Shown here: positions 9,353-9,439 of the stretch, one piece after another | Layout: each line of letters opens with the position of its first letter | Position numbering within the stretch: the first letter of the stretch is position 1 | Virus record (IMG/VR): IMGVR_UViG_2654587772_000002 | Source of the DNA: a virus | Lineage: Duplodnaviria; Heunggongvirae; Uroviricota; Caudoviricetes | DNA: 64,000 nt | Reading direction: 5' to 3' (one strand) | Program-made: the position numbers and the translations under genes | Notes under the pieces: generated by a model | The model's input: only the letters and a program-made list of their open reading frames with translations | Told to the model about the DNA's origin: nothing | Database searches by the model: none

Positions 9353-9439
9353 GGAGAGTAGGGAGCATGGTGCTCAAGCGGTCTTGAAAGCCGTCCCGTT
9401 GCGCAAGCGATGATGGTTCGATTCCATTACTCTCCGCCA
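9353..9439 (+). tRNA. Candidate class-II (long variable arm) tRNA-like gene, anticodon TGA (Ser-type); D-arm non-canonical, may be a pseudo-tRNA
   Basis: Perfect 7-bp acceptor stem GGAGAGT/ACTCTCC, discriminator G + CCA, T-arm GATGG-TTCGATT-CCATT, anticodon loop CTTGAAA, 17-nt variable arm. Confidence 0.35.

Follow-up and report, generated by a model that had tools for sequence, protein, structure and literature searches.

[quoted passage not shown] (2017; PMC5389517), were found as false positives of a tRNA-Sec model. This class is characterized by a long variable arm, G73 and a compact D-arm like that of tRNA-Sec (PMC5389517; review PMC7609411). Both sources also give the identity rules for SerRS, and SerRS is reported in PMC5389517 to accept 7/5, 8/5, 9/4, 8/4 and 9/3 tRNAs while ignoring the anticodon. 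Two further reports concern phages and phage-plasmids that carry such a gene: the Ser(TGA) tRNA of rV5 was detected by ARAGORN only and was missed by tRNAscan (PMC3606486), and the paper on a D6-like plasmid lists four tRNAs, namely Asn, Thr, Ser and Met (PMC6799933).

In the window, that is, the whole 64,000-nucleotide stretch of DNA analysed here, we examined the 87-base sequence GGAGAGUAGGGAGCAUGGUGCUCAAGCGGUCUUGAAAGCCGUCCCGUUGCGCAAGCGAUGAUGGUUCGAUUCCAUUACUCUCCGCCA (9353-9439, plus strand), which a preliminary description had put forward as a candidate fourth, class II tRNA-like gene, either an additional Ser-type tRNA or a pseudo-tRNA. ARAGORN, which had been suggested there as a check, called tRNA-Ser(tga) with exactly these coordinates. 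All the features that the description had listed were present in the sequence: the perfect 7-bp acceptor stem (GGAGAGU/ACUCUCC), the discriminator G followed by an encoded CCA, the T-arm letters GAUGG-UUCGAUU-CCAUU, and the anticodon loop CUUGAAA with anticodon UGA and a 17-nt variable region. The D-arm (GAGCA-UGG-UGCUC) was indeed compact, its stem having either 5 bp and a 3-nt loop or, alternatively, 4 bp and a 5-nt loop, but what had been called atypical proved to be a family trait and is better read within the known 8/4 architecture. Likewise, the arms as originally drawn, in a 7/5 arrangement, are possible in the single sequence, but the family data favour 8 bp in the acceptor stem, 4 bp in the T-stem and 6 bp in the variable stem. 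The identity features for serine were retained (long variable arm, G73 and a G1-G2-A3 start). The arms and the neighbouring elements are listed in Table 1.

Table 1. Positions of the tRNA-Ser gene, its arms and associated elements in the window.
Feature	Position	Strand	Basis or remark
tRNA-Ser(UGA) gene, 87 nt, encoded CCA	9353..9439	+	ARAGORN, family covariance model, RefSeq identity
Acceptor stem, 5' strand, 8 nt, GGAGAGUA	9353..9360	+	pairs with 9428-9435 (UACUCUCC); eighth pair A8-U covaries
Compact D-arm, stem GAGC(A)/(U)GCUC, loop with invariant GG	9363..9375	+	both-sided changes, all four stem pairs
Anticodon arm, stem GCGGU/GCCGU, loop CUUGAAA	9378..9394	+	5/5 stem pairs covary, 98.7% of cells paired
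Anticodon UGA	9385-9387	+	sequence, ARAGORN
Variable arm, 6-bp stem CGUUGC/GCGAUG, GCAA tetraloop, 16 nt	9397..9412	+	closing pair C45-G60 covaries
T-arm, 4-bp stem AUGG/CCAU, loop UUCGAUU	9413..9427	+	sequence, family covariation
Discriminator G73 (9436) and encoded CCA	9436..9439	+	sequence
Long hairpin from the tRNA CCA, apical 64-nt core 9464-9527	9438..9555	+	fold -50.4 kcal/mol, z -4.3
tRNA-Asn(GUU) 8725-8800 and tRNA-Thr(UGU) 8803-8878	8725..8878	+	ARAGORN; Rfam 74.5 and 72.9 bits
CAU-anticodon tRNA	10403..10478	+	ARAGORN; tRNA-Ile (ileX-like) in P1 and RefSeq
C1 operator ATTGCTCTAATAAATTT (8040-8056) and ban promoter region	8040..8075	+	sequence compared with P1 Oban/P1ban/P2ban annotation

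The window is a P1-like phage-plasmid, with a C1 operator, ban promoter, dicF-like region, tciA/tciB, ban and C4 antisense RNA, and its tRNA segment is of the D6/P7 type with four tRNAs. P1 shares window 8600-9207 (99%) and 9535-9760 (97%), and between these shared parts it carries another segment of 236 nt, annotated upl, and lacks the tRNA-Ser. The statement in the preliminary description that P1 carries three tRNAs is therefore right for P1 itself, the window being a P1-like relative with four. Because P1 is fully viable without the tRNA-Ser, the gene is accessory and dispensable. D6, P7 and Cyrano have the gene, which is unannotated in P7, and the D6 record describes it as tRNA-Ser with an 'apparent UGA Serine anticodon but AA not called by tRNAscan-SE'. 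In RefSeq, the identical 87 nt are tRNA-Ser CF59_RS26850 (PGAP) of E. coli ST2747 (NZ_CP007393.1). The D6, D6-like plasmid and RefSeq records thus hold the same gene and leave its fold without comment. More widely, homologues of the tRNA-Ser were annotated in 331 of 5426 complete E. coli genomes, with 334 of the 337 places on plasmids, and in PLSDB the segment 9207-9535 was found in 362 plasmids versus 738 for the trnA-trnT segment. Judged from its sequence, 9353-9439 is a genuine tRNA-Ser(UGA) gene, one already annotated and published and hence ordinary. Window 9300-9702 was 100% identical to the ST2747 record, which is labelled "chromosome" and, at about 2.14-2.21 Mb, has P1-like genes lying as far as at least 60 kb from the match; such a match in a chromosome record suggests that the element either is integrated there or was assembled into the chromosome. 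Elsewhere in the window, 35464-35674 (+) matched isrK (58.2 bits) and then C4 antisense RNA (75 bits), above the Rfam gathering score, and presumably represents the immI region of the P1-like element.

Blast searches detected related tRNA-Ser genes in 340 phage records, including rV5-like phages (about 90% identity), T5-like Klebsiella phages such as Sugarland (78%), T4-like Klebsiella phages (73%) and also Streptomyces phages; GGAGNGUAG, a short D-arm and UUAC-UCUCC-G were common to these relatives. The family therefore extends to unrelated lytic phages (rV5 and the T5-like and T4-like Klebsiella groups). A pattern scan of IMG/VR, in which GGAG/CUCC, the AA before the anticodon stem, the anticodon loop, part of the T-loop and GCCA were fixed, gave 62 distinct sequences, which separated into canonical tRNA-Ser (U8, long D-arm) and 47 sequences with a compact D-arm; positions fixed by this search pattern carry no information. 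Covariation was counted on a MAFFT alignment of the 47 compact-D homologues. When the 8/4 structure was placed on this alignment, 91.4% of the cells were paired, both-sided changes were found in 22 of the 27 pairs, and every stem covaried. The covariation score was 0.448 versus 0.131 in shuffles, with none of 500 shuffles reaching the observed value, and only 39-54% of the cells were paired in slid controls, in which the 3' partner was moved by 1-3 columns. The GG of the D-loop, which was unconstrained by the search pattern, was invariant in all 47 sequences. Another pattern scan of IMG/VR brought up, in aquatic phage contigs (L009-L040), an unrelated tRNA-Ser(UGA) family (GGAGUGC...GGGGUUCGAUUCCGCC...), whose T-stem is unpaired in the standard register (AGGGG/CCGCC) and which may have another non-canonical fold.

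With Rfam at relaxed thresholds, the best match at 9353-9439 was tRNA-Sec (43.4 bits, E 7e-07; gathering score 47). The general Rfam tRNA model stayed below its gathering score at this position, and Rfam reported only the other three tRNAs of the window, which accounts for the hesitation of tRNAscan-type tools over the tRNA-Ser; membership in the 8/4 class likewise accounts for the under-calling of the gene by covariance-model tRNA finders. We built a family covariance model with the 8/4 structure from 23 members, excluding P1-like and rV5-like sequences. On this model, the window tRNA-Ser scored 87.0 bits (E 4e-20), matching over its full length with no non-standard pairs, whereas the canonical T4 tRNA-Ser scored 40.4 bits and the tRNA-Thr and tRNA-Asn of the window scored 30.6 and 27.1 bits, respectively. 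As a property of the sequence, the score of 9353-9439 is far above chance, and a cloverleaf with an acceptable covariance-model score, proposed in the preliminary description as a test of the gene, was thus obtained with a model from which its close relatives had been left out.

The window gene resembles the 8/4 tRNA-Ser of Mukai et al. in its 12-bp acceptor branch split 8/4, its long variable arm, G73 (the class allows U73) and compact D-arm, in its serine anticodon, which separates it from other allo-tRNAs, in its location within a phage tRNA cluster, and in its high tRNA-Sec covariance score, just under the gathering score. It differs in its D-arm, where 4-5 bp and a loop of 3-5 nt stand in place of a strict long stem with a tetraloop. 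The examples named in the text of that paper belong to marine metagenomic and alpha-proteobacterial phages, whereas the window gene lies in an enterobacterial P1-like element. The unusual shape of the window tRNA-Ser is thus that of a described class. Among nearer relatives, the D6 tRNA-Ser occupies the same locus between trnT and tciA and differs at three positions, including one C-U mismatch in the D-stem, the surrounding 977 nt being 91% identical. The trnS gene of rV5, which sits in the tRNA cluster of a lytic myovirus, and those of other Vequintavirus encode an about 90% identical tRNA with a shared 3' flanking core; rV5 trnS is 91 nt long and has a variable stem longer by one pair (paired insertions), a 5-nt loop and an acceptor G5-U pair. 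Between trnS and trnT of rV5 (L003 2690-2788), ARAGORN also reported a tRNA-like gene of 99 nt, with an anticodon of four bases, that scored 24.6 bits on the 8/4 model; a pseudo-tRNA and a tRNA-like RNA of an unusual kind are both conceivable here. The tRNA-Ser of T4 is similar to the window gene in its anticodon loop, G1-G2-A3, G73 and long variable arm, and presumably uses the same synthetase and codons, but we rejected it as a characterized relative on the basis of its canonical 7/5 arrangement. Canonical class II tRNA-Ser(UGA), to which E. coli serT, with the same anticodon loop, also belongs, has U8, a 3-4-bp D-stem, a large D-loop and the 7/5 arrangement, whereas the window gene has A8, at which s4U8 cannot form. 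The canonical phage tRNA-Ser sequences from the IMG/VR scan all had U8, a D-arm of at least 17 nt and positions 8 and 66 unpaired.

The tRNA-Ser gene is on the same strand as trnA, trnT, tciA, tciB, trnI and ban, all downstream of the C1 operator, which controls the ban promoters in P1 according to the P1 annotation. Since the gene lies on this strand downstream of the C1-repressed ban promoter, it would most likely be transcribed from that promoter on prophage derepression, and the tRNA, with its CCA encoded, would be released from a polycistronic transcript by RNase P and the 3' processing enzymes of the host. A dicF-like region (P1 annotation) at 8160-8260 (+) ends in a terminator-like hairpin (8232-8251). 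As this hairpin stands between the ban promoter and the tRNAs, read-through or processing would be needed for expression, and by analogy with P1 we assume read-through past it. A simple promoter scan of 7900-10800 found none, but it also missed the documented ban promoters and is therefore uninformative in this interval; a literature search found no useful P1 transcriptome or ban-operon RNA-seq.

Codons were counted in ORFs of at least 150 codons in the window and in a single 50-kb stretch of the ST2747 chromosome. UCA was used 12.2 times per 1000 codons (19% of Ser) in the window versus 4.4 (8%) in the host stretch (odds ratio 2.8, p 1.5e-13), and the corresponding values were 12.4 versus 5.3 per 1000 for ACA and 10.4 versus 1.5 for AUA. 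Three of the four tRNAs in the cluster match A-ending codons that the phage overuses. The CAU-anticodon tRNA (10403-10478) was labelled Met by ARAGORN; in P1 and RefSeq it is a tRNA-Ile, ileX-like and lysidine-dependent, an assignment that fits the 7-fold enrichment of AUA. In the mechanism that we propose, the tRNA-Ser would be serylated by the host SerRS and would read UCA; provided that its U34 carries the modification of the host tRNA, it would probably read further UCN codons too. Because UCA is much commoner in phage than in host genes, the tRNA-Ser would supplement a scarce host tRNA, its neighbours would do likewise for ACA and AUA, and translation would be expected to benefit. Codon supplementation from the ban operon is thus the most likely and best-supported role of the gene.

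Between trnT and tciA lie 830 nt of highly structured (z -5.8), non-coding sequence. The long hairpin that starts at the tRNA CCA has an apical 64-nt core that is about 90% conserved 3' of rV5 trnS (L003 2592-2690), as seen in an alignment with D6, P7 and rV5. In the lambda late leader, the core recurs between tR' and S at 95-100% identity (L163 2501-2564), and it was found at 338 chromosomal places in E. coli. The stem closing this core differs by context: GUUAAGAGUAUUUGGCU/AGCCAAAUGCUCUUACC in the window, GUUGACC/GGUCAAC in rV5, GUUGUGCUG/CAGCACAAC in lambda and, with compensatory changes, GUUGUGGUG/CACCACAC in a lambdoid variant. Paralogous long hairpins are located at 8440-8520, 8881-8966, 9103-9202 and 9438-9555, with arms that differ by compensatory changes. 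The first three, together with L002 2186-2258, have the base CACAAC/GTTGTG and the arms AGGTAAGRG.../...CYCTTACC, and two members of this hairpin family enclose T-arm-like GGTTCGAnT hairpins; in lambda, a hairpin of the CACAAC-AGGTAAGAG type directly follows tR' (L163 2424-2496). The copies at 9103-9202 and 9438-9555 are each followed by GGTGAATGCG. We considered and rejected two other readings of the 3' element. A self-cleaving ribozyme (HDV-like, hammerhead, twister or others) was not supported, as Rfam, including its self-cleaving ribozymes, gave no match to the element with E-value limits of 10 for the window region and 0.01 for the lambda region. The core was also considered as a small ORF, but the window ORF 9474-9566 was unconserved, with ATA in place of ATG in lambda and AAG plus a 1-nt indel in rV5. 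Farther downstream, the stretch 9549-9669 (+), in the leader immediately before the TerB-like tciA, partially matched the Rfam sRNA family STnc100 (37.8 bits, E 3.6e-06; gathering score 47); it ends in the hairpin CACCGGGAGGCACCCGGCACC and is conserved in P1.

Two minus-strand ORFs of P1, plp and upl (window 8849-9240 (-) and L002 1650-2219), overlie these structured modules, and plp overlaps trnT; in the window, plp is no longer one open frame but two ORFs, of 96 and 30 aa. Both plp and upl may not be genes; the modules that they overlie are conserved, non-coding and common to the lambda late leader, and re-annotation may be deserved. The lambdoid contig L184 (3980-4160) has the module of window 9321-9455 with the tRNA-Ser precisely absent, CACCGACCATCACA being joined directly to ACGCAACGTTAAGAG, and its late leader includes the 'upl' segment of P1. 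In Cyrano, the tRNA-Ser has a leader of about 15 nt and follows tRNA-Thr directly. The precise absence in L184 and the arrangement in Cyrano indicate that the tRNA-Ser comes and goes independently, in the manner of a small cassette. Obvious candidates for the function of the modules are hairpins that serve processing or stability and scaffolds on which tRNA cassettes recombine, and the leader modules could be RNA processing or stability elements that double as recombination landing pads for tRNA genes. A precedent for such elements exists in T4, where the stable RNAs rnaC and rnaD, which have tRNA-like T-arms, lie unexplained inside the tRNA cluster. It is a tentative and on balance doubtful proposal that the tRNA-Ser is a portable cassette in an undescribed structured-leader family shared by lambda, the ban operon and rV5, with an 8/4 fold that perhaps evades nucleases.

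How the tRNA folds is the question on which a canonical reading competes most directly, namely that of a functional tRNA-Ser in the 7/5 arrangement with merely an unusual D-arm. Taken singly, the window sequence allows both pairings, the sole difference being what the base 3' of the T-stem pairs with. A fifth T-stem pair, G60-U76, is possible in it, its 7-bp acceptor stem has no mismatch, and ARAGORN reports the gene under a standard tRNA model. The single-sequence minimum free energy structure (-34.2 kcal/mol, z -2.8) is not a cloverleaf, although a cloverleaf lies within 1 kcal/mol of it; the 8/4 cloverleaf (-33.2 kcal/mol) was more stable than the 7/5 form (-30.5 kcal/mol) by 2.7 kcal/mol. 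In the alignment, the 7/5 T-stem pair between columns 65 and 81 (G60-U76) was a standard pair in 38 of the 47 homologues (GU 30, GC 4, AU 3 and CG 1, with one double change) and failed as G-G, A-G or A-C in the other nine, exactly where the pair of column 81 with position 8 stayed U-G or G-C. This 8/4 acceptor pair (column 81 with position 8) was AU in 30, UG in 7, GC in 5 and GU in 1 sequence and unpaired in 4 of 47. In addition, column 65 covaried with column 47 in the 8/4 closure of the variable arm (C45-G60; CG 40, UA 6, unpaired 1 of 47), and the window gene has A8 in place of the near-universal U8 that canonical phage tRNA-Ser retain. These results favour the 8/4 fold for the window tRNA-Ser, a preference based on family covariation and the modelled energy difference, and make a canonical 7/5 tRNA distinctly unlikely. 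A selenocysteine-type or recoding tRNA, to which the near-threshold tRNA-Sec match, the long variable arm, the extended D-stem and G73 could point, has a negligible probability: the anticodon UGA reads the sense codon UCA, whereas the UCA anticodon of tRNA-Sec reads the stop codon UGA, the acceptor branch has 12 bp and not 13, and the D-arm has 4-5 bp with a 3-5-nt loop and not 6 bp with 4 nt. Anticodon and branch length rule out both tRNA-Sec and a suppressor tRNA, and 8/4 tRNAs are known as false positives of the tRNA-Sec model RF01852 (PMC5389517).

Two further readings concern whether and how the 8/4 tRNA-Ser is used. The pseudo-tRNA left open by the preliminary description, a decaying and functionless relic of a tRNA cassette, would agree with the lack of the gene in P1, with a region full of tRNA-like relics and hairpins, with the sub-threshold general Rfam score and with the D-stem mismatch in D6. 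However, the stems in the window are all intact, each stem shows compensatory changes across lineages, the gene has retained the GG of its D-loop, its T-loop, G73 and the CCA, and it is conserved both in plasmids, by the hundreds, and in lytic phages unrelated to them, so that decay is highly improbable; the alternative given in that description, an additional Ser-type class II tRNA, is supported by stems that covary in the 47 homologues and by intact serine identity features. A main role other than decoding, in which the fold evades a host tRNA nuclease or modification-dependent defence and the tRNA replaces depleted tRNA-Ser or acts as a decoy, is suggested by the recurrence of the same fold in unrelated lytic and temperate enterobacterial phages, as would be expected under selection for the fold, and by the precise gain and loss of the accessory cassette. 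The codon bias is already a sufficient reason for the gene, however, and the anticodon loop CUUGAAA matches that of the host tRNA-Ser(UGA), which gives no sign of anticodon-loop escape; we know of no Ser-specific tRNA nuclease of E. coli. We therefore regard a defence role as very unlikely. Together, these results make it probable that 9353-9439 encodes a functional phage-borne tRNA-Ser(UGA) with an 8/4 fold that would be expressed from the ban operon and supplement the reading of UCA.

The supply of tRNAs for A-ending codons is the textbook explanation for phage tRNAs, and in this respect the gene itself matters little. Its assignment to the 8/4 class, on the other hand, places a widespread tRNA-Ser of enterobacterial phages, carried by P1-like plasmids and by rV5-like, T5-like and T4-like Klebsiella phages, in that class, and would offer a convenient natural system in E. 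coli in which the processing, modification and use of 8/4 tRNAs could be followed.
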